DNA of 64,000 nt from an uncultured Actinomycetota bacterium (lineage in GTDB: Bacteria; Actinomycetota; Actinomycetes; Actinomycetales; Cellulomonadaceae). Both the position numbers and the translations under genes were made by a program. The notes beneath the pieces are model-generated. The model was not told the DNA's origin. It saw nothing but the letters and a program-made list of their open reading frames with translations, and searched no databases. Positions 27,451-62,065 of this stretch are shown here, in pieces; positions within the stretch are counted from its first letter, which is position 1; every line of letters begins with the position of its first letter. Where the stretch lies: NCBI GenBank assembly GCA_963807045.1, contig CAWDZL010000002.1, positions 1,664,118 to 1,728,117 on the forward strand. The letters are read 5' to 3'.

Positions 27451-27951
27451 ATGAGCACCGAGACCCCCTGGCTGGACGACGAGCAGCTCGACGCCTGGAT
27501 CCGGCTGATCGCCGTGGTCGAGCTGCTGCCCGGCGTCCTCGACGCCCAGCTCCGGCGCGACTCGGACCTCTCGCACTTCGAGTACCTCGTCCTCGCGATG
27601 CTGTCCGAGGCGCCCGACCGGAGCCTGCGGATGACGGCGCTCGCCGCGCGCACCAACGCGACGCTCGCGCGGCTCTCGCACGTCGTCAGCCGGCTCGAGA
27701 ACCGTGGCCTCGTCGCGCGCCGTCCGTGCCCGGGGGACCGCCGCGCCACCAACGCGACGCTCACCGACGCCGGCTGGGACGCCGTCGTCACGGCCGCGCC
27801 CGGGCACGTCGCGACCGTGCGCGCGAACGTCGTCGACGCCCTCACGCGCGAGCAGGTGGCCCAGCTGGGCGGGATCGCCGCGGCGATCCTGGAACGCCTC
27901 GACCCGACCGGCGCGATGACCGAGCCCTACCGGCGGCCCGCGGGGCGCTGA
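27451..27951 (+). CDS. MarR family transcriptional regulator
   Basis: Winged-HTH (TALAARTNATLARLSHVVSRLENRGLVARRPCPGDRR). GTTG-N6-CAAC palindromes lie upstream. Confidence 0.8.
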   Translation: MSTETPWLDDEQLDAWIRLIAVVELLPGVLDAQLRRDSDLSHFEYLVLAMLSEAPDRSLRMTALAARTNATLARLSHVVSRLENRGLVARRPCPGDRRATNATLTDAGWDAVVTAAPGHVATVRANVVDALTREQVAQLGGIAAAILERLDPTGAMTEPYRRPAGR

Positions 27952-28026
27952 GGGCCGGCCGGGACGGCGACGGCCCGCCACCCGCCGGAGCGGGGGACGG
28001 GCCGTCGGCCGGCCGGGCGGGACGCG

Positions 28027-29635
28027 TCAGGCGCCCGGCAGCGACCACCGCTGGGCGGTGTTGTCGTAGCAGTCCCAGATCTGGGTGCGCTGGCTGTTGA
28101 CGGCCTTGCCGTCCGGGTTGTCGATGCACTTGCCGGACTCGGGGTTCTTGTAGGAGTTCCCCGAGCGGACCCACGTCTGGTTCGACTGGCCCGGGTGGCA
28201 CTCCCAGATCTGCAGCTTCGAGCCGTTGCTGGTGCCCCAGTCCTTCACGTCGAGGCACTTGCCGAGCGCGCGGAGCGTTCCGTCGGAGCCGAAGGTCCAG
28301 CGCTGCGCGTTCGTACCGTTGCAGTCGTAGAGCTGCACGGCAGTCCCGTTGGCGTCCTTCGCCGCGGCGACGTCGAGGCACTTGCCGTCCGAGCCGGAAC
28401 GGATCGCGCCCGTCCCGGTGGTCGGCGTCGGCGTCGGCGTCGTGCCCCCACCGCCCGTGAACGAGGTGCAGCTCGATGCGGGCGCTGCGCGGGTCGCCGT
28501 CGTGCACGAGCGACTCGTGAGCGCCGACGTCGTCGAACGGGAAGGCGTAGGCGCGGCCGTCGGCCATCGCCGCGTGGATCACGCGCCCGTACAGGTTGGG
28601 CGGCGTGCTGCGGTAGTACTGCCCGGCGTCGGACACGGGCTCGGTGGTGCTCGCACCGAGCGTCCCGCGGAACAGCGCGGAGCACAGCGTCCGGGCGATC
28701 GGCCCGACCACCTGGTCGTTCGGGGCGTGCAGGGCGCCGTCACAGCCCCAGACGTCCGCCGACGACGGCCGGTTGAACGAGGCGACCTCACGGCCCGACG
28801 AGTCGGTGAACCGCATGGTGGTGCCGGACGTGCGGCCGGTGTAGCGGACCTCCGGCCGGTCGCCGAACGGCTGCACGGTGAGGTTCCGGCTCGAGTAGGC
28901 GTTCCACGCGGAGGCGATGTAGCTGTCCAGGAAGCCGGCGCTCAGCAGCCCGGCGCTCGCCGCCTTGCCCGGCGCGAGCACGCGCAGCACGGTGCCGTCG
29001 GAGCGGGTGACGACGCTGCGCGCCCACGCCGCGTCGCCCTTCAGTGCGTCGATGATCTGCTGGCGACCGCCCGCGACCAGGCGGCCGGTGGTGCGCGTCG
29101 TACCCGAGGCGCCCGTGACGCTCACGGCGTGCGGGACGGCGAACATGTCGACCTGCGAGCTGTTGAGCCACAGGCCGCCGTTGTCGTAGGTGAGCTCGCT
29201 CCAGTCGAAGAGGATGTCGCGCGACGGGTCGTTGCCCGCCCACGGGGCCGGCTGGACGAGCCCGCCGGGCGTGAGCGAGAACGGCAGCTTCTGCCCGAAC
29301 GAGAAGTAGATGCGGCCGGAGAACCCGCGCGGGACCTGCACGGTCACCGAGCCTCCGTTGGTGGGCCCGGCGATGGCGCTGTCGGGTGCGGGCGACGGCG
29401 GGTTGGCGCCCGCCGGCCACTGGTGGAACGTCCCGCCGGCATCCACCCAGCCGAGCTTGCCCGTCGACAGGTTCGTGCCCTGCACGTAGACGAACACCTG
29501 CTCGCCCCGGCCGGACTGGTTCGCGATCGTGATCGGCAGGCGGTCCGGCCCAGCCGCTGTCGCCGGTGTGGCGGCCCCTGTGATGCCGAGCACCCCCACG
29601 ATCAGCGCGGCGAGCACTATCCGTAGTTTTCGCAT
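28027..29635 (-). CDS. GH64 beta-1,3-glucanase with PT-linker and C-terminal ricin-B lectin (CBM13) domain; the two parts are in different frames with an apparent frameshift near 28450-28470
   Basis: Signal peptide (MRKLRIVLAALIVGVLGITGAATPATA), then a GH64-like catalytic region down to about 28460. In the -1 frame comes the linker GGGGTTPTPTPTTTGTG and a ricin-B domain (QxW repeats, track ORF 28027..28338). Confidence 0.7.
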
Positions 29636-29902: not shown

Positions 29903-30886
29903 TCAGTCGGCAGTGGCGCCGCAGCCGGCGGCCGCCGGCTCGGTCCCGGCCTCCGCCGCGACCACGGCGAGGCCCTCCGGCGTCGGCGGCTCGGACTCGA
30001 CGGCCGGTGCGCGGCGCGAGGCGAGGGCGGATCCCGCGAGGACGAGCACGAACCCGGCCGCGGTGAGCCAGGTGATCGGCTCGTCGAGCACGATCGCGCC
30101 GGCCGCGACCGCCACCGCCGGGTTCAGGTAGGTGACGAGCGTGCTCCGCAGGGCGCCGACCTCGGCGACCAGGGCGAAGAAGAGCATGAGCGCCGCGGCG
30201 GTGCAGATCAGACCCAGCCCGACAGCGGACGCCGTGACGCTCGCCGACGGCCATCGGTCCGGAGCGTGGGCCACGCCCGGGACCGCGTAGATCGCGGTGG
30301 CCGTGAGCAGGCTGAGCGCGATGACGCCCGTGGCGGGCGCGTCGGCGAGGTGGCGCGCCATGATCACCGGCCCGATGGCGTAGCAGAGGATCACGACGGC
30401 GAGCTCCCCGACGGCCTGCGCCTCGCCGCCGCCGCTCGTCGCGCCGCTCTCGAAGCCGACCAGCAGCGCCACGCCCGCGAAGCCGATGCCCAGCCCGAGC
30501 GCCCCGCGCGCGCCGAGGTGCTCGCTGCGGCGGGTGACCAGGGCGATCACGACCCCGACGATCGGCACCCCGGCGATGAGCAGGCCGGTCAGCGAGCTGG
30601 GCAGGTGCCGCTCGGCGTCGGTCAGGAAGAACCACGGCAGCACGATCTCGATCACGGCGTAGACGACCACCGCGCGCCAGTGCCGCAGTGCCCCGGCGAG
30701 CGCGCCCCGGGAGACCGCGAGCGGCACCATGACGAGGGAGGCGATGACGACGCGCGACAGGACGAGCGTCGTCGGGTGCAGCTCGTCGACGGCGATCTTG
30801 ATCAGCAGGTAGGGGATGCCCCACGCGACGCCGAGCCCCGCGAACAGAAGGAACGCGCGGCTCGAGCGGTGGTCGGCAGAGGTCAC
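29903..30886 (-). CDS. EamA/DMT superfamily transporter
   Basis: Ten TM helices with two EamA repeats. GTG start at 30886. The upstream extension of the track ORF runs through palindromic element 1. Confidence 0.75.
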   Translation of the reverse strand: MTSADHRSSRAFLLFAGLGVAWGIPYLLIKIAVDELHPTTLVLSRVVIASLVMVPLAVSRGALAGALRHWRAVVVYAVIEIVLPWFFLTDAERHLPSSLTGLLIAGVPIVGVVIALVTRRSEHLGARGALGLGIGFAGVALLVGFESGATSGGGEAQAVGELAVVILCYAIGPVIMARHLADAPATGVIALSLLTATAIYAVPGVAHAPDRWPSASVTASAVGLGLICTAAALMLFFALVAEVGALRSTLVTYLNPAVAVAAGAIVLDEPITWLTAAGFVLVLAGSALASRRAPAVESEPPTPEGLAVVAAEAGTEPAAAGCGATAD

Positions 30887-30906
30887 CGGGCAACCCTGCG
30901 GACGTG

Positions 30907-31060
30907 CCCCCACCCCCGTCAACCCCGCCGTCCCCCCCGCCCCCCCGCGCGCAAAGTGGAGCGAACGGCACGCGACACGCTGGCGTGTCGGTGCCGTTCG
31001 CTCCACTTTGCGGATGGAGAGGGGGTCAGGTGAGGGTGGGGGGTGACGTGGGGGTCCAGT
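30907..31060. repeat. nested palindromic element, copy 1 (C-rich arm, then 30-bp stem hairpin GCAAAGTGGAGCGAACGGCACGCGACACGC/revcomp, then G-rich arm)
   Basis: Read in the sequence. The core is 30951-31011. The right arm overlaps the 3' end of the flotillin CDS. Confidence 0.85.
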
Positions 31061-32975
31061 TGCGGAGAGCACCCGTGAGGGTTGCGGCCAGGCCCGTGAT
31101 GGCGCCCGTGTCGTTCCCGCCCACCATCACGTCCGGCACGATCTTGACGTGCCCGTCCGCGACGGCCGCAGCGATCGCGACCGCCGACGTCGCCTGCTGC
31201 CCGATGGCGGCCACCTGGGCCTCGTAGCCCGCCGCCTTCGCGAGCCCGAGCGCCTCCGTCGCCTTCGCCTCGGCCAGACCGATCGCCCGACGGCGGTCCG
31301 CCTCGGCCTCACCGGTCTTGCGGACGAACGCCGCCTCGCCGTCGGCCTGCGCGGTGCGGGCCGAGGCCTCCGCCTTCTGGATCTCGACGTTGACGTTCGC
31401 CTTCGCGAGGTCCGTCTGCATGTCGGCGGTGCCGCGGACGCGCTCGAGGTCGACACGCACCTCCTGGGCGCGCTTCTGCTCCTCGTACGTGACCCGTTCC
31501 TGGTTCGCGATCTCACGCTGGGTGAGGACGGCGACCAGCTCCGGCGGGAAGATCACGTCCTGCACGTAGACGCCGCGTGTCTCCACCTCGTACCCGCTGA
31601 GGTACCCGGTGATGTACTGCTGCGCCTGCGCCTGCACGGTGTCGCGGGTCTCGATGAACTGCACGGCCGGCAGCTGCTGGAGGGCGTTGCGGAAGTAGTT
31701 GCCCACCGCGGACTGCAGCACCTCGTTGACCAGGTTCTGCATGGTGCCGACCATCGAGATGACCTTCGGTGCTCGGCTGTCCGAGACGTGGATCTGCACC
31801 TGCAGGTCGATGCCGAAGACGAAGCCCTCACGCGACTTGCCGTCGATCGGGCTCAGCGCTTCGTCGAGGTTGTGCGCCGCCGAGGTCGTGTTCGCCCAGT
31901 TCAGCGTGATGATCGACGTCGGGACGAGCTCCGCCGCGTAGACGCGCGGGTTGATCGCGAACTTGCCGGTGCGCAGCGGCTCGTTCCAGATGCCGCGGTG
32001 GCCGGGCCGCACGATGGAGCCGAACTTGAAGTCCGCCCCGGACGTGTCGACGGTCGGGAGACCGACGTACGCCTTGATGACGGCGACCTCGCCCTGCCGG
32101 ACGACGAGCATCGGCACCAGCTCGACACGCACCAGGAACGGGTTGAGCAGGTACGAGCCGTACAGCAGCGGGTCGTGCTGGAGGCCGATGCGGCCGCCGT
32201 TGTCCAGGAACGCCTGGTAGTCCTGGTAGTTGTTGTGGACCCCGTTCTTGCTGGACAGGATCGCCTCGATCTTCTCGCTCTCCGTCGCACCGGCGGCCTC
32301 GAGCGCGGCGACGTCCTCGAACCCGCCGAGACGGCTGGCGATGTCGCTGCCCTCGGGCGCCTCGCCCTCGAGCGTGGTCACGACGCCGATGACGTCCTGA
32401 CCCTGCTGGGGCGCGATCACCGTCACGCGGAGCTGCTGGGGGAGCAGGCCGAGCGACTCGGGCGACGTGACCTGGTGGCCGCCGGCCTGCTGGATGGGCA
32501 CGCCGTACAGGCGGCTGGCCGTGAGCACGACGAACGCCAGGGGGTGCAGCGGCAGCAGCGTGCCCGGGGGCAGCACGGGCCGCTGGATGCCCTTCTGGCC
32601 ACCCTCCGCGAGGAACCCTGCGAGGTCCGTGAAGTTGCCGAACGACGGCTTGTACGCGGCGCTCTTGGCGCCGATGGGCAGGGGAGCGCCGAGCTGGGCG
32701 ATGACGACGCCGATCTCGCCCGGGTTGACCTGCACCCACGGGTGCTTCGTCACCGAGAAGACGGGCCACAGCTTGAAGCGCAGGCCGGGCATGAGGAGGC
32801 GGGCCTGGTAGCCGGCTTCCCCGTTGAACGCGATGGCCTGGTCGCCCTTGAGGCGCCGGCCGAGCCGCTTGTTGACGAGACCGACCTCACTCGCGCCGAT
32901 GAAGCGGAATGACGCCAGGAGGACGAGGAGCACGACGGCTCCGGCAACGATCCCGGCGATGACGCCAGGTGTCAT
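31026..32975 (-). CDS. flotillin-like SPFH/band-7 protein (YqiK-like)
   Basis: A 649-aa protein with an N-terminal TM, an SPFH domain, and a long EA-rich coiled coil (flotillin region). The C-terminal PT-rich tail is encoded by the repeat arm. Confidence 0.8.
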   Translation of the reverse strand: MTPGVIAGIVAGAVVLLVLLASFRFIGASEVGLVNKRLGRRLKGDQAIAFNGEAGYQARLLMPGLRFKLWPVFSVTKHPWVQVNPGEIGVVIAQLGAPLPIGAKSAAYKPSFGNFTDLAGFLAEGGQKGIQRPVLPPGTLLPLHPLAFVVLTASRLYGVPIQQAGGHQVTSPESLGLLPQQLRVTVIAPQQGQDVIGVVTTLEGEAPEGSDIASRLGGFEDVAALEAAGATESEKIEAILSSKNGVHNNYQDYQAFLDNGGRIGLQHDPLLYGSYLLNPFLVRVELVPMLVVRQGEVAVIKAYVGLPTVDTSGADFKFGSIVRPGHRGIWNEPLRTGKFAINPRVYAAELVPTSIITLNWANTTSAAHNLDEALSPIDGKSREGFVFGIDLQVQIHVSDSRAPKVISMVGTMQNLVNEVLQSAVGNYFRNALQQLPAVQFIETRDTVQAQAQQYITGYLSGYEVETRGVYVQDVIFPPELVAVLTQREIANQERVTYEEQKRAQEVRVDLERVRGTADMQTDLAKANVNVEIQKAEASARTAQADGEAAFVRKTGEAEADRRRAIGLAEAKATEALGLAKAAGYEAQVAAIGQQATSAVAIAAAVADGHVKIVPDVMVGGNDTGAITGLAATLTGALRNWTPTSPPTLT

Positions 32976-33140
32976 GGTGATGCACCGATCCTTCAGTCAG
33001 GTGTGCGCCTCGTGGCGCGCCCCGAGAGTGTGGCACCGAGATCATCCGCCGCGCGGGCCTTTCCGGGAGCCGGCGGACACCCTCCCGGGAGCCGGACGCC
33101 GCCCTTCCGGGAGCCGGACAAGCCCGATCCGTGAGCCGGA

Positions 33141-33268
33141 CGGGGGAGTCCCTCCTCTCCCCGCGGTTCCTCACGCAAAGTGGAGCGAAGTGCACCGACA
33201 CGCCAGGCGTGTCGGTGCACTTCGCTCCACTTTGCGGACGAAGGGGGGTGGGGGGCTAGGGGTGGGGG
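33141..33268. repeat. nested palindromic element, copy 2 (perfect 30-bp stem GCAAAGTGGAGCGAAGTGCACCGACACGCC/revcomp)
   Basis: Core at 33175-33235. The G-rich arm encodes the C-terminal HVPHP of the ABC ATPase. Confidence 0.85.
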
Positions 33269-33834
33269 ACGTGGACGAGCGGGGCGGCCAGGGCGTCGGC
33301 GTCGGCGCGTTCGTGGGTGACCAGCAGCATCGTGCGGCCGCCGTGGGCCTCGCGCAGGTGCGCCACCGCAAGCTCGCGCGAGGCGACATCGAGCCCCGCG
33401 AACGGCTCGTCGAGCACCGTGAGCTCGGCGCGGACCAGCAGTGCGCGGGCCAGCGCCACCTTGCGCCGCTGCCCGCCGGACAGCTCCCGCACGGGCTTGC
33501 GCAGCGCGTCGTCGTCCAGGCCGAGCGCCCGCAGCTCGGCGACCACGGCCTCGGCGTCGGCGGCCCGACCCAGCACCAGGCGCACGTTGCGCACGGCGCT
33601 GAGCTGACCGCACAGCCGGTCCTCCTGGAACGCCGCCGCCCGTCGCCGCGGAACCCCGCGCACCTCGCCGGCGTCGGGCGTCTCGAGGCCCAGCAGGAGC
33701 CGGCCGATCGTCGTCTTGCCGCTGCCGTTGGGACCCATCAGGGCCGTCACGACGCCGTCGGGCAGCGTCAGGTCCAGCCCGTCGAGGACCACCTGGTCGC
33801 CGTAGCGCTTCGTCACCCCGCGCAGCTCGATCAC
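33256..33834 (-). CDS. ABC transporter ATP-binding protein (NitT/TauT-like)
   Basis: GPNGSGKTT, LSGGQRRK, LDEPFAGLD. Its GTG start overlaps the permease stop (GTGA). Confidence 0.8.
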   Translation of the reverse strand: MIELRGVTKRYGDQVVLDGLDLTLPDGVVTALMGPNGSGKTTIGRLLLGLETPDAGEVRGVPRRRAAAFQEDRLCGQLSAVRNVRLVLGRAADAEAVVAELRALGLDDDALRKPVRELSGGQRRKVALARALLVRAELTVLDEPFAGLDVASRELAVAHLREAHGGRTMLLVTHERADADALAAPLVHVPHP

Positions 33835-34664
33835 GCCGCCGCCTCCGTCCCGGAGGGGGGCGCGACCGGCGTCGGGCGCCCAACGGCCAGTCGTCGCTCG
33901 GCGCGGCCCAGCAGCGCGACCAGGCCCTTCTCGAACCCGTAGCTCGCGGCGATGATCACGGCGGTCCAGGCGAACAGGTCGGCGCTGGAGAGGAAGAGCT
34001 TCGCCTCGTAGAGGCGTTCGCCGATGCTCCCGTCGGGCAGCCCGATCACCTCCGCCGCGACGCCGCTCTTCCAGGCGAGCCCGACGCCGAGGCGGCACGC
34101 GGCGAGGAAGAAGGGCAGCACGGCGGGCACGTCCACGGCGGTGACCCGCCGCACGAGCGGCACCTCGAAGACCGTCGCCATCTCCAGGAGCGCGCGATCG
34201 CGGTGCCGGATGCCCTCCAGCACGGTGACGTACGCGACCGGCAGCACCATCAGGAACGAGGTGATCGCGGCGAGCTTGCCGCTGTCGGCCACGAGCAGCA
34301 CCAGGATGATGAAGCTGACGACGGGCGCCGCGCGCACCGCGACGAGGAACGGCGTCAGCAGGGCGTCGGCGACCCGCGACCAGGCGGCGAGGGCCGCGAG
34401 CACGACGCCGACCGCCACGGCGAGCGCGAAGCCCACCGTGATGCGCGCGAACGAGAACCACACCGTGGACCAGAAGTCCGCCGTCGGCACGAGGTCGACG
34501 AGCCGCTCCGCGACGTCAGCAGGCGGGGCGAAGAGGAAGTCGTGCCCCACCCAGGCCGCGACGAGCTGCCAGACGGCCAGCCAGAACACGACGACCCCCA
34601 GGAGGCGCAGTGCCCCCCGGGGGTCGCGACGTGTGCGACGGTCAGCCGGCGAAGTAGAAGTCAT
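33831..34664 (-). CDS. ABC transporter permease (NitT/TauT-like)
   Basis: Six TM helices. The start (Met 34664 versus 34682) is uncertain. Confidence 0.7.
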   Translation of the reverse strand: MTSTSPADRRTRRDPRGALRLLGVVVFWLAVWQLVAAWVGHDFLFAPPADVAERLVDLVPTADFWSTVWFSFARITVGFALAVAVGVVLAALAAWSRVADALLTPFLVAVRAAPVVSFIILVLLVADSGKLAAITSFLMVLPVAYVTVLEGIRHRDRALLEMATVFEVPLVRRVTAVDVPAVLPFFLAACRLGVGLAWKSGVAAEVIGLPDGSIGERLYEAKLFLSSADLFAWTAVIIAASYGFEKGLVALLGRAERRLAVGRPTPVAPPSGTEAAA

Positions 34665-35685
34665 CGCCCGGCATCGTCCCACCGACCGAGGCGGGGTCGG
34701 CGTCGAACAGCACCTTCAGGTACCCACCGAGCGTCGTCTTCAGCTCCGCGCCGCCGATGAACGTGATGTGCGAGCCCGGGATCGCCTTCTCGGCGACCGG
34801 GGCCGCGGGCACGATGCCGGCGTCGGCGATGAGCTTCGCCGCCTCGGCGGGGTTGTCGTTCGTGAACTCCGTGGAGGCCTCGTAGTCGGTGAGGAACTGC
34901 GCGAAGGCCTCCGGGTTCTCCTCGATGAACTGCGTGCGGGCGACGACGACGCCGGTCACCAGCGCGGAGTCCTTGGCGACCGCGTCCCACTCGTCGGTGA
35001 GGCTGAGGGCCGTGCGGACCGCGGGGTTCTGCGTCTGCACGACCGTGGCGAACGGCTGGGGCAGCATCGCGATGGTCCCGGGTGCGCTGGCCAGGACGGA
35101 GGCGACCTCGGTGTGCTCGCTGCGGTAGTCGACGGTCACGTCGACGCCCGGCTCGAGGCCGTTGCTGCGCAGGATGTAGTCGAGGACGTACTCCGGCGAG
35201 GCGCCCTTGCCGGACGCGACGATCGTCTTGCCCCTGAGGTCGGCGACGCTCTGCACGGTGTCGCCCGACTCGAGGATGTCCATGACGCCGAGGGTGTTGA
35301 TCGCGGCGACCTGCACCGCGGCGCCGTCGTCGGTGAGCGTCTTGTTGTAGAGGACGGCGGCGAGGTTGGCGGGGACCATCGCGACGTCGGCCTTGCCCTG
35401 CACGACGAGCGGGACGATCTCGTCCGGGCTGCCGTACATCGTGACCTGGTAGTCCTCGGCGGCCTGGCCCGTCGTCGCCTGGTCCATGAGGTGGACGAGC
35501 CCCATCGTCGTCGGGCCCTTGAGGGACGCGATGCGGATGGTGGTGGGCTCCGCGGGCGTGGTGGCCGCGGCCTCGGCGTCGGGGGTGGTGCTCGGCGTTG
35601 CGGCGGGCTCGGTCGCGGAGCTGCAGCCGGCGAGCAGGGCTGCGACGGCGACGACGCCGGTCAGGACGCGAGAGATGCGCTTCAC
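34642..35685 (-). CDS. ABC transporter substrate-binding lipoprotein (NMT1/THI5-like)
   Basis: Signal peptide with lipobox LAGC. A periplasmic binding fold. Confidence 0.8.
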   Translation of the reverse strand: MKRISRVLTGVVAVAALLAGCSSATEPAATPSTTPDAEAAATTPAEPTTIRIASLKGPTTMGLVHLMDQATTGQAAEDYQVTMYGSPDEIVPLVVQGKADVAMVPANLAAVLYNKTLTDDGAAVQVAAINTLGVMDILESGDTVQSVADLRGKTIVASGKGASPEYVLDYILRSNGLEPGVDVTVDYRSEHTEVASVLASAPGTIAMLPQPFATVVQTQNPAVRTALSLTDEWDAVAKDSALVTGVVVARTQFIEENPEAFAQFLTDYEASTEFTNDNPAEAAKLIADAGIVPAAPVAEKAIPGSHITFIGGAELKTTLGGYLKVLFDADPASVGGTMPGDDFYFAG

Positions 35686-35833
35686 TGGGTCCTCGTTTCT
35701 CGGCGACCGACCGCCGGTCGGCGCCGGCGGTGGCGGGGTGGCTGCGCCGCCGCGAATTGGCCCGACGCGCGCCGCCGAAACCGACGTTACGGGCGTAGTC
35801 GTCCCATCACCGCGGACTTCCGACCCACCCGCT

Positions 35834-36012
35834 GCCCGCCCCTCTCTCCCCCCGCCCCGCCCCTCTCCCCACCCCAGCCGCGAGCGCTGCCACGGCGCGC
35901 GAGAACTGCCGTCTGGACGGCAGCGTTCGCGTGCCGTAGCAGCGCTCGCGGCTGGGGTGGGGCGGGGGGGAGGGGCGGGGGGTTACGGGGTGGGTGCGGG
36001 TCGGGGGCGGCG
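35834..36012. repeat. nested palindromic element, copy 3 (about 180 bp; C-rich arm, CGCGAGCGCTGCC...GGCAGCGCTCGCG core, G-rich arm)
   Basis: Read in the sequence. The arms are imperfect inverted copies of each other. The right arm supplies the C-terminal codons of the F420 reductase. Confidence 0.8.
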
Positions 36013-36639
36013 GGCGGACGCGAGGTCGGTGCGCAGCTCCTCGGCGGTGCGGCGCGGACCGTAGCCGGGGGTGTCCGGCTGGATGCGCCAGCCCTCCGCG
36101 AGGCCGTCGAGCTCCACGGTGTCGAACCCGAGCGCGTCGATCAGCTCGGCGACGGCCCGGCGCGCGTCGGCGTCGTCGGCGGCCACCACGAGCGCGCGGC
36201 GCCCCGGCGTGCCCGACGGCGTCGCGTGCTCGGTGAGGTCGGCCGCGGTGATGTGGTTGAACGCCTTCACGACGACGGAGCCCGTCAGGCGCTGCTGGAG
36301 CAGCTCGGCGGAGGTGATGCTCTCTTCGTCGAGCTCCGGGATGTGCCCGTCGCGCTGCCAGTAGTAGTTGTTCGTGTCGATCACGATCTTGCCGGCGAGG
36401 GGCTCGACCGGGACGGTGCCGATGGCGTGCAGGGGGATGGTCACGACGGCGAGGTCCGCGGCCTCGGCTGCCTCCCGTGGTGTCCCGGCCCGCGCGTGGT
36501 CGCCCAGCTCGTCGACGAGGTCCACCAGGGTGTGTGGTCCGCGGGAGTTGCTCAGGACGACGTCGTAGCCGTTCGCGACGGCCAGGCGCGCGAGCTGGGA
36601 GCCGATGTGGCCGGAGCCGATGAGTCCGATTGTGGTCAT
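35983..36639 (-). CDS. NADPH-dependent F420 reductase (Npd-like)
   Basis: N-terminal Rossmann motif (MTTIGLIGSGHIGSQLARLAVANGYDV) and F420 reductase-like overall sequence. Confidence 0.7.
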   Translation of the reverse strand: MTTIGLIGSGHIGSQLARLAVANGYDVVLSNSRGPHTLVDLVDELGDHARAGTPREAAEAADLAVVTIPLHAIGTVPVEPLAGKIVIDTNNYYWQRDGHIPELDEESITSAELLQQRLTGSVVVKAFNHITAADLTEHATPSGTPGRRALVVAADDADARRAVAELIDALGFDTVELDGLAEGWRIQPDTPGYGPRRTAEELRTDLASARRPRPAPTP

Positions 36640-36705
36640 GAGGACGTCAACCGCTGCCGCCGCGACCCATTCCCGCCCGACGCCGTGACGCCCGACACGC
36701 GACTA

Positions 36706-36806
36706 GCCCCTCCCGCGAGCGCTGCCGTCTCACGCGAGCGCTGCCGGGTGGATGGCAGCGCTCGCGTGAGACGGCAGCGCTCGGCGGAGGGGGGCGGGGG
36801 CGCGGG
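36706..36806. repeat. nested palindromic element, copy 4 (about 40-bp stem; shares CGCGAGCGCTGCC with copy 3)
   Basis: Lies in the divergent intergenic region between the F420 reductase and the alpha/beta hydrolase. Confidence 0.8.
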
Positions 36807-36832
36807 GTGTCGGTGGTGGCGGATAGCGTCCT

Positions 36833-37630
36833 GTGGTGACCTTCAGAGTGCCGTCTCGTGTTGTGCCCTGGACCCTCGTCGCCTACGGCGCGCTGCCCGA
36901 CCAGGTCGCCGAGGTGACCGTGCCCGACGGCGCTCGCGGACCCCTGCCGCTCGTCCTGCTGCTGCACGGCGGGGTGTGGCGTGAGCCGCACGACCGCGTG
37001 CACGTGCGGCCGCTCGCCTCGGCGCTCGCGCGGCTCGGGGCGATCGTGGCGAACGTCGACTATCGGCGCGTGGACGGTGCGGGCGGGTGGCCGGCGACCT
37101 TCGAGGACGCCGCGGCCGCGACCGACCTGCTCCCCGATCTGATCGAGACGGCGGGGCTCGCCCGGGTGGACCGCGGCGCCGTCGTGCTGGTCGGCCACTC
37201 GGCCGGCGGGCACCTCGCGCTCTGGTCGGCGCTGCGGGACCGGTTGCCGGAGGGTGCACCGGGGTGGCGGGCGACGGCGCCCGCGGTGACCGGCGTCGTC
37301 CCGATGGGTGCGGTCGTCGCGCTGACGGAGTTCCACGCGGGCCGCGAGGCACCGACGGTCGAGCGGCTGATGGGCGGCTCGCCGGCGCAGGTGCCGGACC
37401 GTTACCGAGCGGCGGACCCGGCGGGGCTCGGGGCGCCGGACTGCCGGACGATCCTCGTGCACGGCGGCGAGGACGAGGAGGTGCCGGTCGCGACGGCCCG
37501 CGCCTACGCGACGGCGCACCCCGAGGTCGAGCTGGTGGAGATACCGGCGACGGGCCACTTCCCGCTCATCGATCCGGCGTCCGACGCCTGGCCGGCGGTC
37601 CGCGACGCGGTCCTGAGCGCCCTGACCTGA
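36833..37630 (+). CDS. alpha/beta hydrolase (esterase/lipase-like)
   Basis: HGGVW oxyanion-hole region, GHSAGG nucleophile elbow, and a C-terminal His. Confidence 0.75.
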   Translation: MVTFRVPSRVVPWTLVAYGALPDQVAEVTVPDGARGPLPLVLLLHGGVWREPHDRVHVRPLASALARLGAIVANVDYRRVDGAGGWPATFEDAAAATDLLPDLIETAGLARVDRGAVVLVGHSAGGHLALWSALRDRLPEGAPGWRATAPAVTGVVPMGAVVALTEFHAGREAPTVERLMGGSPAQVPDRYRAADPAGLGAPDCRTILVHGGEDEEVPVATARAYATAHPEVELVEIPATGHFPLIDPASDAWPAVRDAVLSALT

Positions 37631-37647
37631 GCGCGCCTGGGCGCCGA

Positions 37648-37797
37648 CTACTTCGCAGAGCTGGTCTTGACCCTGGAGATCGACGCGGGCGGGGGCCGCA
37701 GGCCGCCCTTCGGGGACTTGCCCGCCGGGTATCCACCGCGGAAGGTGTCGCCGCTCGACTTCTCGGTGGTCGACGACCGCCGCTTCTTGTCGCTCAT
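37648..37797 (-). CDS. small basic Ser/Thr/Lys-rich protein (49 aa)
   Basis: ATG 37797 preceded by GGAAGGGAG. The sequence is low-complexity, so this is a weak call. Confidence 0.3.
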   Translation of the reverse strand: MSDKKRRSSTTEKSSGDTFRGGYPAGKSPKGGLRPPPASISRVKTSSAK

Positions 37798-37817
37798 GGT
37801 TCGGCCGCTCCCTTCCA

Positions 37818-38480
37818 TCACGGGTCGATGAACGCAGCGTAGGCGACCTGGTCCCAGTTGACGAGCACGGCGATGCCGCGACGGAGGACCGCACCGTCCT
37901 CGTCGACGAGGAAGTCCCCGCTGTCCGGGTCCAGCTCGCAGGTGTCCACCAGGTAGAGGTCCTGCGTGTGGGGAAAACCGGCCGCATAGCTGCCCGGACG
38001 CGCGCCCCCGTCGTCGCTCGGGTCCTCCCACGCACCGGCCAGCCAGGTGCCGCTCTTGAGTCGCAGACGCAGCCAGCCCGTGAGCGCGGGGGACCGGAAC
38101 AGTGCATCCCAGCCCCTCGGTGCGGGCGACGGCCCCGTGAAGTAGCGGGCCCACCGCTTCCGCTGCTTCGCCGCGACCCCGACGGCGCTGCCGAGCGCGA
38201 TGGGGAAGACGACGTATGCGGCGTAGATCAGCCAGACCCACCAGGGCACCCGCAGGCCGTCCTCGGAGCTCCACGCGCTCGTGTACCGGCAGTAGAGCCA
38301 GTAGACGAGGGGCGCGGTGAGGACCGAGAACGCCGCTGAGACGCCGACGAAGCGGGCGATGCGGTCGCTCAGCGCGACCTCCCACGCGCCGTCTTCCCGC
38401 TCGTAGGCCCAGGTGTAGAGCGCGCCGGGCAGCACCGCGAGGACGAACACCGCTATCGCCTGGAATGTGCTCGGCGCCAT
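37818..38480 (-). CDS. hypothetical polytopic membrane protein
   Basis: 220 aa with 4-5 TM helices. Protein-like composition. Confidence 0.5.
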   Translation of the reverse strand: MAPSTFQAIAVFVLAVLPGALYTWAYEREDGAWEVALSDRIARFVGVSAAFSVLTAPLVYWLYCRYTSAWSSEDGLRVPWWVWLIYAAYVVFPIALGSAVGVAAKQRKRWARYFTGPSPAPRGWDALFRSPALTGWLRLRLKSGTWLAGAWEDPSDDGGARPGSYAAGFPHTQDLYLVDTCELDPDSGDFLVDEDGAVLRRGIAVLVNWDQVAYAAFIDP

Positions 38481-38564
38481 CGGGTCATCGTGCCGCAGCC
38501 GTCGGGCCGCGTGTGGGCGGTTGTGGACGACGACGCCGGGGCCGGCGGGGGTGACGACGCTCGC

Positions 38565-39758
38565 TCAGCCCTGGGCGAGCCGGTCCAGCGCCAGGCCGGC
38601 GAGCACCGCTGCCGACAGCGGCAGCGCCGACTCGTCGAACCGGGCCTGCGCCGAGTGGTTGTACGGCGCCGTGGCGGGATCCGAGCCGGCGGGCGTTGCG
38701 CCGACGAAGACGTACGCCCCCGGCACCTGCTCCAGCACGTAGGAGAAGTCCTCGGCGCCGGCCAGTGGCTGCGCCAGCTCGGCGTAGTGCCCCGGCCCGG
38801 CGAGCTCGCCGACCACGCGCTCCACGCGCGCCACCTCCGCGGCGTCGTTCACCGTCACCGGGTAGCCGCGTACGTACTCGACGTCGGCGGTCATCCCGTG
38901 CGCGGCGGCGACATGCTCGAACAGTCGCGCGAGCCGCTCCGGCACGGCCGCGTGCGACGCCGGTGAGAACGTCCGCACGGTCGCGGCGAGCTCCGCGGTC
39001 GCCGGGATGACGTTGTCGGTGGTCCCGGCGGCGATCCGCCCGACGGACACCACCACGGGGTCGTGCGCGTCGAACTGCCTGGTCACCGCGGTCTGTAGCG
39101 CGAGCACCATCTCCGCCGCCACCGGTACCGGGTCGGCCGCGAGGTGCGGCATGGACCCGTGCCCGCCCCGGCCCCGCACGGTGACGAACACCTGGTCGGC
39201 GGCCGCCATGAGGGTTCCGGGCCGACCGGTGACCTGACCCGACGGGAACAGCCCCGACGCCACGTGCACCCCGTACGCCGCGACCACGCGGTCGCCGGCG
39301 GCGTCGAGCACGCCCTCCTCGATCATCACGCGCGCGCCGTGCGGCCCCTCCTCGCCCGGCTGGAACATGAAGACGACCGAGCCCGCGATCTTGTCCCGGC
39401 GTGCAAGCAGTAGCCGCGCCGCGCCCACCAACCCGGCCACGTGCAGGTCATGCCCGCACGCGTGCATGACGCCGGGGTGCTCGCTCGTGAACGGCTCGCC
39501 GGTGTCCTCGGTGACGGGCAGGGCGTCCATGTCGCCGCGCAGCAGCACGGCCGGTCCGGGCCGCGCGCCGCGCAGCACGGCGGTCACTGAGCTCAGCCTC
39601 GTGCCCGTCGACACCTCCAGGTCCAGCCCGGCCAGTGCTTCGAGGAGCCGCGCCTGCGTCTTCGGCAGGTCCAGCCCGATCTCTGGGATGCGGTGCAGGT
39701 CGCGGCGCAGCGCCGACAGCTCCGGGGCGAGGGCCCGCGCCTGCGCGAGGAGGGTCAT
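38565..39758 (-). CDS. M20D family amidohydrolase (hippurate hydrolase/N-acyl-amino acid amidohydrolase-like)
   Basis: Metal-binding motifs (MHACGHD, GEEG). ATG 39758 is in frame within the track ORF. Confidence 0.8.
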   Translation of the reverse strand: MTLLAQARALAPELSALRRDLHRIPEIGLDLPKTQARLLEALAGLDLEVSTGTRLSSVTAVLRGARPGPAVLLRGDMDALPVTEDTGEPFTSEHPGVMHACGHDLHVAGLVGAARLLLARRDKIAGSVVFMFQPGEEGPHGARVMIEEGVLDAAGDRVVAAYGVHVASGLFPSGQVTGRPGTLMAAADQVFVTVRGRGGHGSMPHLAADPVPVAAEMVLALQTAVTRQFDAHDPVVVSVGRIAAGTTDNVIPATAELAATVRTFSPASHAAVPERLARLFEHVAAAHGMTADVEYVRGYPVTVNDAAEVARVERVVGELAGPGHYAELAQPLAGAEDFSYVLEQVPGAYVFVGATPAGSDPATAPYNHSAQARFDESALPLSAAVLAGLALDRLAQG

Positions 39759-39773
39759 GGCCCGAGTATGTCG

Positions 39774-39883
39774 CCCCGGCAGATCCCCGCCGCACAGTGG
39801 AGCGTTGCGTGGCCCGTTCGTTCCATCGCGGCGGTTCGACGGAGCGCAACGTTCCACTGTGCGGGTGTGCGGGGATTACTGGT
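39774..39883. repeat. nested palindromic element, copy 5 (stem CACAGTGGAGCGTTGCG / CGCAACGTTCCACTGTG with a 35-nt loop)
   Basis: Lies between the carbamate kinase 3' end and the amidohydrolase start. It shares the AGTGGAGCG core with copies 1 and 2. Confidence 0.75.
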
Positions 39884-40814
39884 GGATCGCGGTGCCGCTC
39901 TCGCCGCGCATGGCGAGCGGCGCCTTCTCCAGGGAGCAGATGACGGCGCGCCGCCCGGGCCCGCTCGCGGCGAACGTCATCGCGGCCTGCACCTTCGGCA
40001 GCATCGACCCGGAGCCGAGCTGCCCGGAGTCGATCAGCTGCTGCGCGGCGGCGAGGTCGAGATCGTCGAGGTCCCGCTGCTGCGGGGTTCCGAAGTCGAC
40101 CGCCACGCGGTCCACCGCGGTGAGGATGAACAGGTAGTCCGCCCCGACGGCCTCGGCGAGCGCCGCGGACGCGAAGTCCTTGTCGATCACCGCGGCCACC
40201 CCCCGGTGGTCGCCCTCCGGCGTCCGGACCACGGGGATCCCGCCCCCGCCGCACGCGACCACGATGAACTCGTGGTCGAGCAGGTTGAGGATCGAGTCCC
40301 GCTCGACGATCCGCACGGGACGCGGCGAGGCGACGACCTGCCGCCAGCCGCGACCGGCGTCGTCCACCATGACCAGGCCGGGCTCCGCCGCCATCATGTC
40401 GCGGGCCGTGGCCTCGTCGTAGAAGGCGCCGATCGGCTTCGTCGGGTGCGCGAACGCCGGGTCGTCCGGATCCACCTCCACCTGCGTGACCACGGATGCC
40501 ACGTGCCACGGCATATCCACCCGGCGCAGCTCGCGGGCGATGCCCTGCTGCAGGTGGTAGCCGATGTAGCCCTGGCTCATGGCGGTGCACTCGGGCAACG
40601 CCATCGGCGTGACCCGATCCGTGTGCCGGGCGGCGACGTCGAACGCGAGGTTGATCGCCCCCACCTGCGGCCCGTTGCCGTGGGACACGATGATCTCGTG
40701 CCCCTGGGCGATGAGCCCGACCAGGGCGGGCGCGGCGGCGTCGATCCGCTCGCGCTGCTCGGCAGCCGTGGTGCCCAGGGCGTTGCCGCCGAGGGCGATG
40801 ACGATGCGCGACAT
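39876..40814 (-). CDS. arcC: carbamate kinase
   Basis: MSRIVIALGGNALG N-terminus. ATG 40814 overlaps the upstream stop (ATGTCA). Confidence 0.85.
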   Translation of the reverse strand: MSRIVIALGGNALGTTAAEQRERIDAAAPALVGLIAQGHEIIVSHGNGPQVGAINLAFDVAARHTDRVTPMALPECTAMSQGYIGYHLQQGIARELRRVDMPWHVASVVTQVEVDPDDPAFAHPTKPIGAFYDEATARDMMAAEPGLVMVDDAGRGWRQVVASPRPVRIVERDSILNLLDHEFIVVACGGGGIPVVRTPEGDHRGVAAVIDKDFASAALAEAVGADYLFILTAVDRVAVDFGTPQQRDLDDLDLAAAQQLIDSGQLGSGSMLPKVQAAMTFAASGPGRRAVICSLEKAPLAMRGESGTAIHQ

Positions 40815-40815
40815 G

Positions 40816-41823
40816 TCAGAGGATCCCGGCGAGCAGCGCGTCGAGCTCGGCCTTGGCGGCGGCGACCTTGTGCGGGTTCGGCGTCTCCGGGCGCAGGAAG
40901 TACGCGAGGAGCGCGCGCTGGGCGGTGAGCCGGTTGCCGGCCTCGATGAAGGCGAGCGAGTAGTCCGAGTCGAGCACCTCGTCGGTGACCTCCTCGCCGC
41001 GCGTGGCGGGCAGGCAGTGCATGAACTGCGCACCCGGGCCGGCCGCGGCCATGAGCTCGGCGTTCACCTGGTAGGTCGGCATGAACGCCGCGAGCCGCTC
41101 GGCCTCGCCGAGCTCGGCCTCGTAGTCGCCGTACCAGACGTCCGTGTAGACGAAGTCGGCACCTTCGATCGCGGCGCGGTCGTCCGTCACGGTCATCGAG
41201 CCGCCGGAGACGGCGCAGTTGGCGCGCCCGATCTCCTGCATGGCGGGCTTGAGCTGGAAGGCCTTCGGTCCGTACTGCACGAAGCTCATGCCCATCTTGG
41301 TGGTGATCATCATGAGCGAGGCGCAGACCTGGGTGGCGTCGCCGACGAACACGACCTTGCAGTCCTCGAGCCGCTTCCCGGCGGGCAGGTTCTCGACCAT
41401 CGTGATGAGGTCGCCGATCTCCTGCGTGGGGTGGTTGTAGTCGGACATGCCGTTGAGCACCGGGATGGTCGCGTGCTTGGCCAGGTCCACGACGGTGTGG
41501 TGGCGGGCGACGCGCGCCATGACGACGTCGACGAGTCGCGACAGGACGCGTGCGGTGTCCTCCATGGACTCGTGGCCGCCGAGCTGGATCTGGCCGGGCG
41601 CGAGGTACTGCGCGTGCCCGCCGAGCTGCGACATCGCCGTCTCGAAGGAGACGCGCGTGCGGGTCGAGGACTGCTCGAAGATCATGCCGAGCGTGCGGCC
41701 CTGCAGCAGCGGCGGGAAGTAGCCCACTGCCACGCACTTCTTCAGCGTGATGCCGAGGTTGACGATGTCGAGCACCTCGGCCTTCGTGAGGTCCTGGGTG
41801 TCGATGAAGTGGCGGACGGTCAT
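40816..41823 (-). CDS. ptcA: putrescine/ornithine carbamoyltransferase
   Basis: STRTR carbamoyl-phosphate motif and HCLP motif. AAGGAG RBS. The genomic context (agmatine deiminase) favours putrescine carbamoyltransferase. Confidence 0.8.
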
Positions 41824-41966
41824 CGTCGGCTCCTTGGGTTCGTTCGTCTGGTTGAGGGCAGGGCGCATCGGCCGGACCGCTGGCGGGCGGCACGACTGCG
41901 CGGGAGGGGGAGTGCGTGGAGGCCCGTCCCGCCGGGCGGGGGGTGCCCGGCGGGACGGACGGTCGG

Positions 41967-43064
41967 TCAGCGCCCGGAGGGCTGCTGCTGGGTGATGCAG
42001 TGCACGTTGCCGCCGCCGAGGAGGATCTCCCGGCCGGGGACCGTGACGACGCGCCGCGGCGCGAACAGCTCCGTGTACGCGACGACGGCGTCGGCGTCGT
42101 GCGGGTCGTCGAAGACCGGCAGGACGACGATGTCGTTGCCGATGTAGGAGTTCACGTACGAGCCGGCGAGCCGGTCGCCGGCCTCGCGGGGCAGCGTGCC
42201 CTCGATGGAGTCGACACCGGCCGACTCCTCCTCGGTGATGAAGATCGGCCCGGGCTGGTGGATCTTCACGACCTGCAGCGCGCGGCCGTGCGCGTCGCGC
42301 GTCGCCTCGAGCACCTGCAGCGCGGCCAGGGACCGCTCGTACTGCGGGTCGCTCTCGTCGTCGGTCCAGGTCAGCATGACGACACCCGGCCGCACGAAGC
42401 GGCAGAAGTTGTCGACGTGGCCGTTGGTCTCGTCGAGGTAGACGCCGTACGGCAGCCAGACGACGACGTCGGCCCCCAGGTAGTCGCGCAGGTGCTGCTC
42501 GATCTCCTCGCGCGTCAGGTCGGGGTTGCGGCCGGCGGAGAGCAGGCACTCCTCGGTGACGAGGACCGTGCCCTCGCCGTCGACGTCGATCGAGCCGCCC
42601 TCGAGGACCAGCGGTGCCTTGTAGCGGTCGGTGCCCTCGATCTCGCAGACCTTGCGCGCGACGGCGTCGTCGGCGGCCCACGGGAAGTAGAGGCCGTCCA
42701 CGAGCCCGCCCCAGGCGTTGAAGTCCCAGTCGACACCCCGGACGTCGCCGGCGTCGTTCACGACGAACGTGGGACCGATGTCGCGCATCCAGGAGTCGTC
42801 GTTGGACATCTCGACGACGCGCACGACGTCGGGGAGCTCGCTGCGTGCGTTGTCGAACTGCCGGGCGGACACGGCGACCGTGACGCGCTCGGTCTGGGCG
42901 ATCGCCGTCGCGACGGCGGTGAAGGCGGCCTGGGCGGGCTTGGCGCCGAGGCGCCAGTTGTCGGGGCGCTCGGGCCAGACGAGCCAGCAGCCGCTGTGGT
43001 GCGCCCACTCGGCCGGCATGCGGTAGCCGTCCGCCGCGGGGGTGGAGTCGACGGTGTGGACCAT
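41967..43064 (-). CDS. aguA: agmatine deiminase
   Basis: Porphyromonas-type peptidyl-arginine deiminase family signatures (MPAEWAHH, catalytic Cys near C-terminal [13 protein letters not shown]). Confidence 0.85.
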
Positions 43065-43122
43065 GGTGAGCCTTTCTTGGGTCGGGGCGTCAGGCCGGGT
43101 CTCGGCCGCGCCCGGGGGAGTG

Positions 43123-44616: not shown

Positions 44617-44697
44617 CGGTGCTCCTTTGCGTGTGCCGCTGGGTGGTGCATGCGCCCGAAGGGGGGCTGTGCGCGGCGGGTGCCCTCGGCATCCGTG

Positions 44698-44735
44698 TGT
44701 ACAGACGTACAACTTCGGTATGTACAAACGTACAA
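44698..44735. promoter_or_regulatory. two direct copies of TGTACA-N-ACGTACAA (TGTACAGACGTACAA and TGTACAAACGTACAA) upstream of the antiporter gene; candidate TetR (AguR-like) operator
   Basis: Read in the sequence. Each copy contains the TGTACA palindrome. Confidence 0.45.
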
Positions 44736-44801
44736 GTGGGGGCGATGGTGCCTAGGGACCAACGTCCCTCAGTGCTCTGGTGAGCGGGTGACTTCCGGCT
44801 C

Positions 44802-61928: not shown

Positions 61929-62065
61929 GCCCCCACTCTGCTGCACCGGGCGCCCGCTGTGGGCGGACGACGACGTCGCCCGGGCCTGCACCTGCTCTCG
62001 TGCCACCCGAACGCGGTCATGACGAAGGGCCCGCCACCCACGTCACCGCAGGTCACGGGCCCTTC

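Follow-up and report, generated by a model that had tools for sequence, protein, structure and literature searches.

Modular palindromic intergenic repeats in a member of the Cellulomonadaceae: candidate actinobacterial analogues of REP elements

A 64,000-nucleotide stretch of the genome of an uncultured actinobacterium of the family Cellulomonadaceae (GenBank assembly GCA_963807045.1, contig CAWDZL010000002.1, positions 1,664,118 to 1,728,117; hereafter, the window) carries five hairpin-forming sequences of 100 to 180 bp, referred to here as E1 to E5, which occupy gaps between neighboring operons within 9 kb overall. On balance, we favor the view that these elements represent a lineage-specific family, comprising two subfamilies, of noncoding, modular, palindromic intergenic repeats, whose closest functional analogues are the REP/BIME/REPIN sequences. 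The family belongs to the Micrococcales, in the neighborhood of Actinotalea, Cellulomonas, and Pengzhenrongella; it extends across genera with a fixed polarity and is apparently undescribed so far. The elements have no coding content, and their starting point is the stop codon of the upstream gene or a position just inside it. Within inter-operon spacers, they have been gained, lost, or replaced over the time that separates species of one genus, and they coincide with gene content differences among relatives. This coincidence of the elements with an indel or synteny breakpoint, missed in the preliminary description of this DNA, is the most informative fact about them.

Two sequence families with a common plan

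Inspection of the DNA confirms both the presence of the five repeats and the architecture ascribed to them in the preliminary description. Each element consists of a C-rich tract, 1 to 3 short boxes, a central palindrome, the mirrored boxes, and a G-rich tract. Going from the outside in, a half-element comprises a C-rich low-complexity tract, 1 to 3 copies of a box (AGTGGAGCG in type A and CGCGAGCGCTGCC in type B), and an inner box. The second half is a mirror image of the first, so that either strand reads as a C-tract, a long hairpin, and a G-tract. The idea of a single family of five has to be modified accordingly: the plan is common to all, but the elements fall into two, or perhaps three, sequence families.

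Type A, which includes E1, E2, and the degenerate E5, has the outer box GCAAAGTGGAGCG and the inner box CGACACGCC/GGCGTGTCG around the loop. The core previously noticed in E1 and E2, GCAAAGTGGAGCGAA, is found in exact form on both arms of each of these elements, and E5 indeed shares it, with 3 mismatches; there are 5 matches to this sequence against 0.71 expected. The 9-mer AGTGGAGCG occurs 7 times in the window, 5 of them within E1, E2, and E5. The outer and inner boxes are separated by a variable stem of 6 to 9 bp, in which the differences between E1 and E2 are paired changes. The core of E1 has the order GCAAAGTGGAGCGAA, CGGCAC, GCGACACGC, and loop, followed by the mirror image. E2 contains a perfect palindrome of 31 + 31 nt (positions 33174 to 33236), with the same outer and inner boxes as in E1 and a compensated middle stem, and a strongly G-rich right arm (positions 33237 to 33287). 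In E5, the arms at positions 39790 to 39809 and 39845 to 39864 (CCGCACAGTGGAGCGTTGCG and CGCAACGTTCCACTGTGCGG, respectively) enclose a 35-nt nonpalindromic center and are flanked by short C/G stretches.

Type B consists of E3 and E4, which share, as described before, a core in which CGCGAGCGCTGCC is present 4 times, as two direct copies on the left and two inverted copies on the right, with a 19-nt period. The boxes of E3, which are related to CGCGAGCGCTGCC, lie at positions 35879 to 35891 and 35898 to 35910 on the plus strand and at 35919 to 35931 and 35938 to 35950 on the minus strand; its arms are 79 nt long with 78% complementarity. In E4, the boxes are at positions 36714 to 36726 and 36733 to 36745 (plus) and at 36754 to 36766 and 36773 to 36785 (minus), also with a period of 19 nt, and the arms are shorter (39 nt) but with 95% complementarity; its right flank is G-rich.

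The C-rich left and G-rich right arms are strong in E1 and E3; in E2 and E4, this arrangement is clear only on the right side, and E5 shows it weakly. Of the five strongest G4/C4 (G-quadruplex/i-motif-type) motifs of the window, four are located in E1 to E3, and the fifth is found at positions 49969 to 49994. A candidate sixth element in that region (positions 49959 to 49994), combining a type B-like 13-mer with the G4 motif, was set aside, as it appears, judging by the sequence alone, to be inside a small minus-strand coding region. Comparison of the arms of different elements reveals only compositional likeness (z ≤ 5).

Table 1 Coordinates and boundaries of E1 to E5 and loci recovered in the type A scan
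Feature	Type	Positions or source	Strand	Boundaries
E1	A	30904..31046	none	Left, EamA homology to L200 ends at 30903; right, SPFH homology ends at 31041-31047
E1, C-rich arm		~30904-30950
E1, core palindrome		30951-31011
E1, G-rich arm		31012 to ~31060
E2	A	33143..33287	none	Homology breaks at 33141-33142 (left) and 33288 (right)
E3	B	35828..36004	none	Homology (L078/L200/L202) halts at 35827-35830 and restarts at 36005
E4	B	36706..36806, within 36679-36832	none	Left break at 36675-36678 (L078/L202); right edge undefined by alignments
E5	degenerate A	39754..39876	none	M20 homology ends at 39753; kinase homology begins at 39877
L002	A, scan locus	Actinotalea MAG
L009, L015, L038, L043	A, scan loci	one MAG
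L054	A, scan locus	Cellulomonas endometrii
L060	A, scan locus	Actinotalea fermentans

Related elements in other genomes

Scanning one genome per species with the pattern AAGTGGAGCG-N15-45-CGCTCCACTT, with exact arms required, yielded 71 loci, of which 7 are Cellulomonadaceae-like (Table 1; loci and contigs from other genomes are given by their L numbers), while most others are unrelated hairpins. In 6 of these 7 loci, one of them in a metagenome-assembled genome (MAG) of Actinotalea, the full plan is present, including the inner box, which was absent from the search pattern, and most of them have C-rich left and G-rich right flanks. Together with two copies in the window, this gives 8 full type A copies, 6 of them in three other genomes, in addition to shorter or multi-box variants. 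In the alignment of the 8 full copies, the inner box GACACGC/GCGTGTC is nearly invariant, with 5 of its 6 predicted pairs identical in 8/8 copies, whereas seven pairs of the middle stem show compensatory changes; the outer 10-mer is invariant because the search pattern required it. With a covariance model of the full copies, only E1 (83 to 85 bits), E2 (94 bits), and E5 (43 bits; E value of 2e-8) are matched in the window, and shorter or multi-box variants are detected in relatives. The type A core is therefore not confined to the window, as the same plan is found in Actinotalea, Cellulomonas, and a related MAG.

The fixed order of the arms was also borne out by this comparison: the C-G skew is positive on the left in 14 of 17 members and negative on the right in 15 of 17, and there is no clear case of combined C-left/G-right polarity among 11 ordinary control hairpins. 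The preliminary description had named cores unique to the window and inconsistent arm polarity as findings that would speak against it; with the type A core present elsewhere and the polarity kept, neither was obtained.

Several variants depart from the basic layout. L077 has a 20-bp stem, CGCGCGGTGGAGCGAACGTG, and L060 and L200 each carry two direct units and one inverted unit of AGTGGAGC with 30-nt spacing. In L002, the element at positions 7020 to 7190 contains two direct and three inverted GTGGAGCG-type units flanking the inner palindrome, and a second element (positions 4610 to 4700), into which an assembly gap falls, contains three direct units at a spacing of ~21 nt. Since L002 also has three elements within 5 kb, local clustering is a recurrent trait. 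The copies number 5 in the 64-kb window, at least 4 (with exact arms) in one fragmented MAG, and 3 within 8 kb of L002. Outside the window, type B has one convincing relative among the metagenome matches listed, L114, which has the same four-box layout and a G-tract. The other listed type B matches were rejected: they are mostly an unrelated conserved coding palindrome (translated as ...IERCRTAALGGH...), perhaps belonging to IS91-like transposase genes, and ordinary GC-rich hairpins. The elements of the relatives adjoin ordinary genes, such as hemA and those for a two-component system, ABC transporters, and aminopeptidase P; most of them are located at 3' ends, between tandem or convergent genes.

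In L043, the C-rich arm at positions 2170 to 2219 consists of three tandem 14-nt units, CCACGTCCCNTCCG, and the C-rich left arm of E3 contains two 21-nt tandem units (positions 35828 to 35869); these sequences suggest growth of the arms by tandem duplication. The L002 element contains a run of N (positions 4677 to 4687), and 3 of the 4 copies in the OH_SFB_160 MAG (L009, L015, and L043) are near contig ends; such palindromes appear to break short-read assemblies.

Hairpin stability

Most of the elements stand out in the window as secondary structures. Among its 105 inverted repeat pairs, the five longest (I1 to I5) correspond to E3, E4, E2, E1, and again E4, whereas E5 corresponds to I17. In a sliding RNA fold of the 64 kb with 120-nt windows, E1 to E4 have the lowest energies, and E5 misses the cutoff of 3 standard deviations. 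The hairpins reported initially are well supported by RNA folding, which gives z scores from -5.8 to -15.3 on both strands, with none of 200 shuffled sequences equally stable. The DNA folds have z scores of -6.1 to -13.3, compared to -3.2 for an ordinary hairpin at positions 27945 to 28030. The ordinary terminator-like hairpins of the window (positions 27955 to 28020, 7643 to 7693, and 41918 to 41962) are shorter and have no C/G arms.

Rfam searches of the whole window produced no matches at the gathering threshold, and those of the region from 30700 to 40100 with a permissive threshold returned only subthreshold generic microRNA precursor hairpins. No tRNA or transfer-messenger RNA link to the elements was found.

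Placement at gene ends

The earlier statement that the elements are intergenic or overlap gene 3' ends stands: all five are intergenic, and the upstream minus-strand stop codons are within, or at the edge of, the arms of E1, E2, E3, and E5. The stop codon of the SPFH gene (31026 to 31028, minus strand) falls within the right arm of E1, that of the ABC ATPase gene (33256 to 33258, minus) within the right arm of E2, and that of the F420-oxidoreductase-like gene (35983 to 35985, minus) within the G-rich arm of E3, while E5 fills the whole spacer from the stop codon of the carbamate kinase-like gene (39876 to 39878) to the start of the M20 peptidase gene (~39758). The regions concerned are 31026 to 31047, 33256 to 33288, 35983 to 36004, and 39876. 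E4 is the exception: the F420-oxidoreductase-like gene (start at 36639, minus) and an alpha/beta hydrolase gene (start at 36833, plus) diverge from it on either side. At E1, some 22 terminal codons of the native SPFH gene have been swapped for an element-encoded proline-rich tail and stop codon; the protein is 649 amino acids long, compared to 664 to 670 in the relatives, and ends in the E1-derived tail TPTSPPTLT.

This placement is what brings up the strongest of the rival explanations, which we rank, by weight, as terminators evolved in place, protein-binding arrays, repair scars, and attC-like sites. According to the first of them, the elements would be lineage-specific 3'-end signals formed in place, namely, bidirectional terminators that have no U-tract and are possibly factor or Rho assisted, or RNA-stabilizing hairpins. 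The C-tract would then be a loading site, rich in C and poor in G, and the hairpin would cause a pause or form a barrier, with the likeness of the boxes due to convergence or a factor-driven constraint rather than to mobility. Consistent with this, 4 of the 5 elements and most members in the relatives directly follow stop codons between tandem or convergent genes, the relatives carry some hairpin in the matching slots, the C-tract always comes first, and a symmetric design would work both ways; the cores of E1 and E2 are flanked by AAA...TTT, as those of bidirectional terminators are. However, the proposed "terminator module" failed the canonical test: none of the elements has a U-tract (at least 5 T in 8 positions), E1 and E2 having only CTTTGC at the stem end, and no canonical promoters or terminators were called in the five elements, the terminator scan returning 0 of 5. 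Other observations also disagree with this explanation, including the position of E4 between divergent gene starts, hairpins far longer than the ordinary terminator-like ones of the window, and better folding of the antisense strand in 4 of 5 cases. Further, the orthologous site of E2 is empty in L078, so the operon junction works without it, and the occurrence of the 13-nt box together with the inner box at unrelated loci of different genera would be hard to achieve by evolution in place. We therefore consider the terminator explanation unlikely, although it deserves more weight than the other rivals.

Turnover at operon junctions

Gene calls based on GC3 and supplemented by Pfam show that the genes flanking the elements are ordinary chromosomal genes. 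On the minus strand unless stated otherwise, the order is EamA, E1, SPFH, E2, ABC transporter ATPase, permease, and binding protein, E3, F420-oxidoreductase-like protein, E4, alpha/beta hydrolase (plus strand), DUF6338, M20 peptidase, E5, and amino acid (carbamate) kinase. Contigs of relatives that encode SPFH or M20 orthologs were aligned to the window by blastn, five relatives being compared, and the boundaries of the elements were reset from the homology breaks (Table 1). Every element is bounded by such breaks, in the case of E4 at the left edge only.

The clearest case is E2, a clean indel: L078/L079 have 48 bp at the orthologous site, the window has 146 bp, and both flanks are conserved. 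It provides the presence/absence polymorphism at an orthologous site that is used as a criterion for MITEs. L072 and L077 lack the entire 6.7-kb block extending from E2 to E5, of which E2 forms the left edge. The E1 site is occupied by a 5'-nucleotidase gene in L072, L077, and L200, and the E3 site by a sigma70 gene and a small gene in L078 and L202 (1.26 kb in L078). E4 borders a 1.9-kb block (hydrolase and DUF6338) in place of which L078, L200, and L202 have other genes. At the E5 site, L200 has a 5-kb GH3/SLH gene and L072 has a plain hairpin with a 14-bp stem.

In some relatives, shorter GTGGAGCG hairpins are found in slots matching those of the elements. The slot after SPFH, occupied by E1 in the window, has a GTGGAGCGAAC hairpin of 20 bp in L077, an unrelated one of 21 bp in L072, and nothing in L078, and the slot after the ABC ATPase gene holds E2 in the window, a three-box AGTGGAGC element in L200, and, again, nothing in L078. 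The order from M20 to the ABC operon is kept without the elements in L078, L200, and L202; in L078 and L202, it also includes the F420 oxidoreductase gene, and in L078 it continues to SPFH. The elements thus do not carry these genes as cargo. For the same reason, a block transposon bounded by E2 and E5 was rejected, as L078, L200, and L202 share the genes and their order in the absence of the elements.

Two more explanations have been considered in view of these breakpoints. The elements could be repair scars left at deletion or rearrangement junctions, where fold-back priming or end joining in the course of double-strand break repair would generate palindromes and C/G tracts. Such an origin would be compatible with the extra genes that the relatives hold at E1, E3, E4, and E5 (5'-nucleotidase, sigma70 and the small gene, several genes, and GH3/SLH, respectively), with the low-complexity arms that are nonhomologous between elements, and with the loss of the native SPFH C terminus at E1. 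Local repair, however, cannot produce boxes and an inner palindrome that recur at unrelated loci and in other genera; besides, at E2 there is only an insertion, with no genes lost, and the arms are not inverted copies of the adjoining unique sequence. This makes scars a very improbable source of the elements.

Alternatively, the elements might be attC-like recombination sites bounding gene cassettes in an integron-like or Xer-module-like array. Like integron attC sites, they are imperfect palindromes of 100 to 180 bp at the 3' ends of co-directional genes, alternating with gene blocks, and have conserved boxes with a variable stretch between them; the gene content between the conserved flanks also varies in the relatives. 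Unlike attC sites, they contain, on direct reading, no RYYYAAC/GTTRRRY core sites, and no integrase was found among the open reading frames (ORFs) scanned. The supposed cassettes (M20 peptidase, F420 oxidoreductase, ABC operon, and SPFH) come in the same order in the element-free relatives, and among the blocks are an operon of three genes and a gene in the opposite orientation. Of all the alternatives, this is the one to which we give the least credence, regarding it as hardly plausible.

The boxes as potential recognition sites

Conservation of the boxes themselves allows a different interpretation, that of binding site arrays for a putative DNA-binding protein (nucleoid-associated, insulator-like, or partition-like), in which the hairpin would be a by-product of symmetry. 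The functional units would be the boxes AAAGTGGAGCG and CGCGAGCGCTGCC, placed symmetrically at about two helical turns. Indeed, the boxes are direct on one arm and inverted on the other, with a spacing of 19 to 22 nt (E3, E4, L002, and L114) or 30 nt (L060 and L200), and they are conserved while the stems between them are variable.

Potential counterparts of the type A box exist in Collinsella and in another MAG. In Collinsella spp. (L006, L008, L011, L023, L039, L051, and L056), there is an orthologous intergenic hairpin, GCGCAAAAGTGGAGCGAAC...GTTCGCTCCACTTTTGCGC (e.g., positions 1265 to 1320 of L008), which matches the type A outer box in 16 of 17 nt, extending beyond the 10 nt fixed by the search, and has no Rfam match. 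Another MAG of the Actinomycetota, MFD04212.bin.c.6, has at least 5 dispersed hairpins, AAGTGGAGCGATC...GATCGCTCCACTT (in L007, L013, L046, and, in two copies, L014). By sequence, these hairpins appear to form a repeat family of their own that shares the 10-mer head.

These two matches would suit binding arrays as well, but the cross-phylum signal may be due to chance, given that the search pattern dictated the 10-mer and that hairpins are the main source of such matches. Also, the spacer stems carry compensatory changes, indicating maintenance of the pairing itself, and the sites are absent at the orthologous positions of close relatives. We know of no candidate protein, and the motif matches no operator known to us. 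Binding arrays with an incidental hairpin are thus distinctly doubtful.

A bolder proposal, which we put forward as a speculation with rather low expectations, takes the AGTGGAGCG-type and CGCGAGCGCTGCC boxes as the recognition signal for a putative protein widespread in Actinomycetota and the elements as cruciform/G-quadruplex modules that insulate operons and drive the turnover of gene blocks. The protein could be a non-RAYT mobilizing enzyme or a domesticated structure-specific DNA- or RNA-binding factor. The hints in this direction are the conservation of the boxes across genera while the stems covary, the spacing of about two helical turns, and the fixed C-to-G polarity, along with the Collinsella match and the shared 10-mer of the second MAG family. 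If true, box recognition would constitute a new repeat-and-protein system, beyond a REP look-alike.

There are certain similarities to known sites, all of which we take to be coincidental: to a Tn3 family terminal repeat (11 of 12 nt, with the opposite G/C polarity), to the PafBC/RecA-NDp motif TGTCGGTG (only TGTCG is conserved, and TAnnnT is missing), to the actinobacterial LexA box (wrong spacing), and to the DnaA box and the 3' end of tRNA-Ala (5 to 7 nt only).

Comparison with known repeat families

The best-known palindromic repeats of this kind are the REP, BIME, and REPIN sequences of Proteobacteria, such as the E. coli REPs and Pseudomonas REPINs (PMC3116915, PMC2817692, and PMC3733652), whose hallmark is a conserved tetranucleotide head, GTAG or CGTC (PMC3733652). 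Such repeats are also characterized by tens to hundreds of copies dispersed over a genome and by a cognate RAYT (Y1 HUH transposase), present once and flanked by the repeats. Like them, E1 to E5 are noncoding and extragenic, are located mostly at gene 3' ends (with the exception of E4), and consist of a short unit in inverted, sometimes clustered, copies that form long stable hairpins. In both cases, presence or absence varies between relatives and coincides with rearrangement points, and by analogy, similar roles, as an RNA 3' barrier or in protein binding, might be expected. The differences are that, in E1 to E5, the GTAG/CGTC head is missing, the units are also directly repeated within an arm, the arms are long C/G tracts of fixed polarity, no RAYT has been found among the window ORFs scanned, and the host is an actinobacterium of 73% GC. 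"REP/MITE-like" therefore remains the best available label for the elements but does not amount to membership, as there is neither the tetranucleotide head nor a demonstrable target site duplication.

BOX elements of Streptococcus pneumoniae and Correia, ERIC, and RUP sequences are likewise modular, with pairing end modules and a variable number of internal units; these MITE-like repeats are intergenic, have no coding capacity, and are mobilized in trans or by unknown means. However, there is no sequence relation, E1 to E5 are near-symmetric palindromes throughout, and no target site duplication or parent insertion sequence (IS) was identified for them. The DNA uptake sequences (DUS) of Neisseria and uptake signal sequences (USS) of Pasteurellaceae resemble them in being conserved 9- to 12-mers that form inverted pairs in hairpins just 3' of genes, but the 9-mer of the window is not scattered singly, and we know of no uptake specificity in this bacterial group. 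With intrinsic (Rho-independent) terminators, E1 to E5 share the GC-rich stem-loop directly after stop codons and differ in the length of the stems (30 to 79 nt against 5 to 15 bp) and the added C/G tracts.

The earlier remark that this is not a described actinobacterial element agrees with the searchable literature, in which we found no description of the motif or of an actinobacterial REP/MITE; the searchable REP literature does not cover Cellulomonadaceae. A BLAST search with the E2 core had no match in 72,556 plasmids or 50,697 phages, and its matches in viral contigs were unrelated.

Arguments against a repeat family and a possible mechanism

Several observations weigh against the assignment of E1 to E5 to a REP-like repeat family. 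In 4 of the 5 elements, RNA of the plus strand folds better than that of the sense (minus) strand, which does not support selection on the sense transcript. There is some circularity in the link to breakpoints, since insertion of an element by itself interrupts homology. Both edges of E2 carry a possible TCCCCC, but the flanks are ~22% diverged and C-rich, which makes it unreliable as a target site duplication. There are no near-identical copies: the E1 and E2 cores are ~85% alike and the arms have no clear homology, so recent transposition is not demonstrated. All five elements are within 9 kb and none is found in the other 55 kb, which is odd for a freely dispersing repeat. The scan of ~30 ORFs of the window revealed no RAYT, parent IS, transposase, or integrase, in line with the initial report of no transposase within or near the elements. 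The conserved part of type A begins with GCAAAGTGGAGCG rather than a GTAG/CGTC head, and these tetranucleotides are only incidental in E3, E4, and L114. Finally, the copy counts refer only to the 64-kb window, the contigs of the relatives, and one exact-arm genome scan.

If E1 to E5 are nevertheless a repeat family, as we favor, they would spread or be exchanged in trans through a host- or IS-encoded enzyme that recognizes the boxes in hairpin form or, alternatively, by gene conversion between copies. Arm-to-arm correction would keep the stems paired and would be the source of the compensatory changes. At the RNA level, the hairpins probably form 3' barriers, or insulators, that separate co-directional transcription units. 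At the DNA level, fragile sites would probably arise from the near-perfect palindromes and the G4-prone tracts, and these sites could promote the local deletions and rearrangements seen at 4 of the 5 sites.

Other features of the window

The window has a GC content of ~73%, and its proteins are closest to those of Pengzhenrongella, Actinotalea, and Cellulomonas, with 77 to 84% identity. The GC fraction of the last segment, from 62001 to 64000, is 0.67, compared to 0.71 to 0.76 across the remaining window. Next to E5 is a conserved block (positions 39876 to 45482) that encodes carbamate kinase, OTCase, agmatine/peptidyl-arginine deiminase, an amino acid permease, and a TetR family protein and has 86 to 87% nucleotide identity with L072, L077, and L200; its four intergenic spacers (within 39877 to 45482) contain no palindromic elements. 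Upstream (5') of the SPFH gene, at positions 33060 to 33135, there are three to four tandem units of ~17 bp (CCTTCCGGGAGCCGGAC), kept in L072, L077, and L078, whose sequence suggests an operator-like array for this gene. On the minus strand between 56240 and 60385, an ORF with a Pnkp ligase domain is found near a Hen1 methyltransferase ORF, suggesting a bacterial RNA repair pair. The "tRNA-???" with a four-base anticodon predicted by ARAGORN at positions 3512 to 3585 (minus strand) is probably a false positive, because it lies within a GC3-supported ORF (2629 to 4140, minus).

Implications

For annotation and assembly, the elements serve as a warning, since they provide upstream genes with stop codons and proline-rich tails and appear to break assemblies. 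Dispersed palindromic repeats are well studied in Proteobacteria but, to our knowledge, hardly described in high-GC Gram-positive bacteria. With its two boxes, fixed polarity, and modular growth, the family described here offers a searchable model for the spread of such repeats without a known RAYT. The presence of near-perfect palindromes and G4-prone tracts exactly at gene content differences makes a role of these elements in genome plasticity testable.

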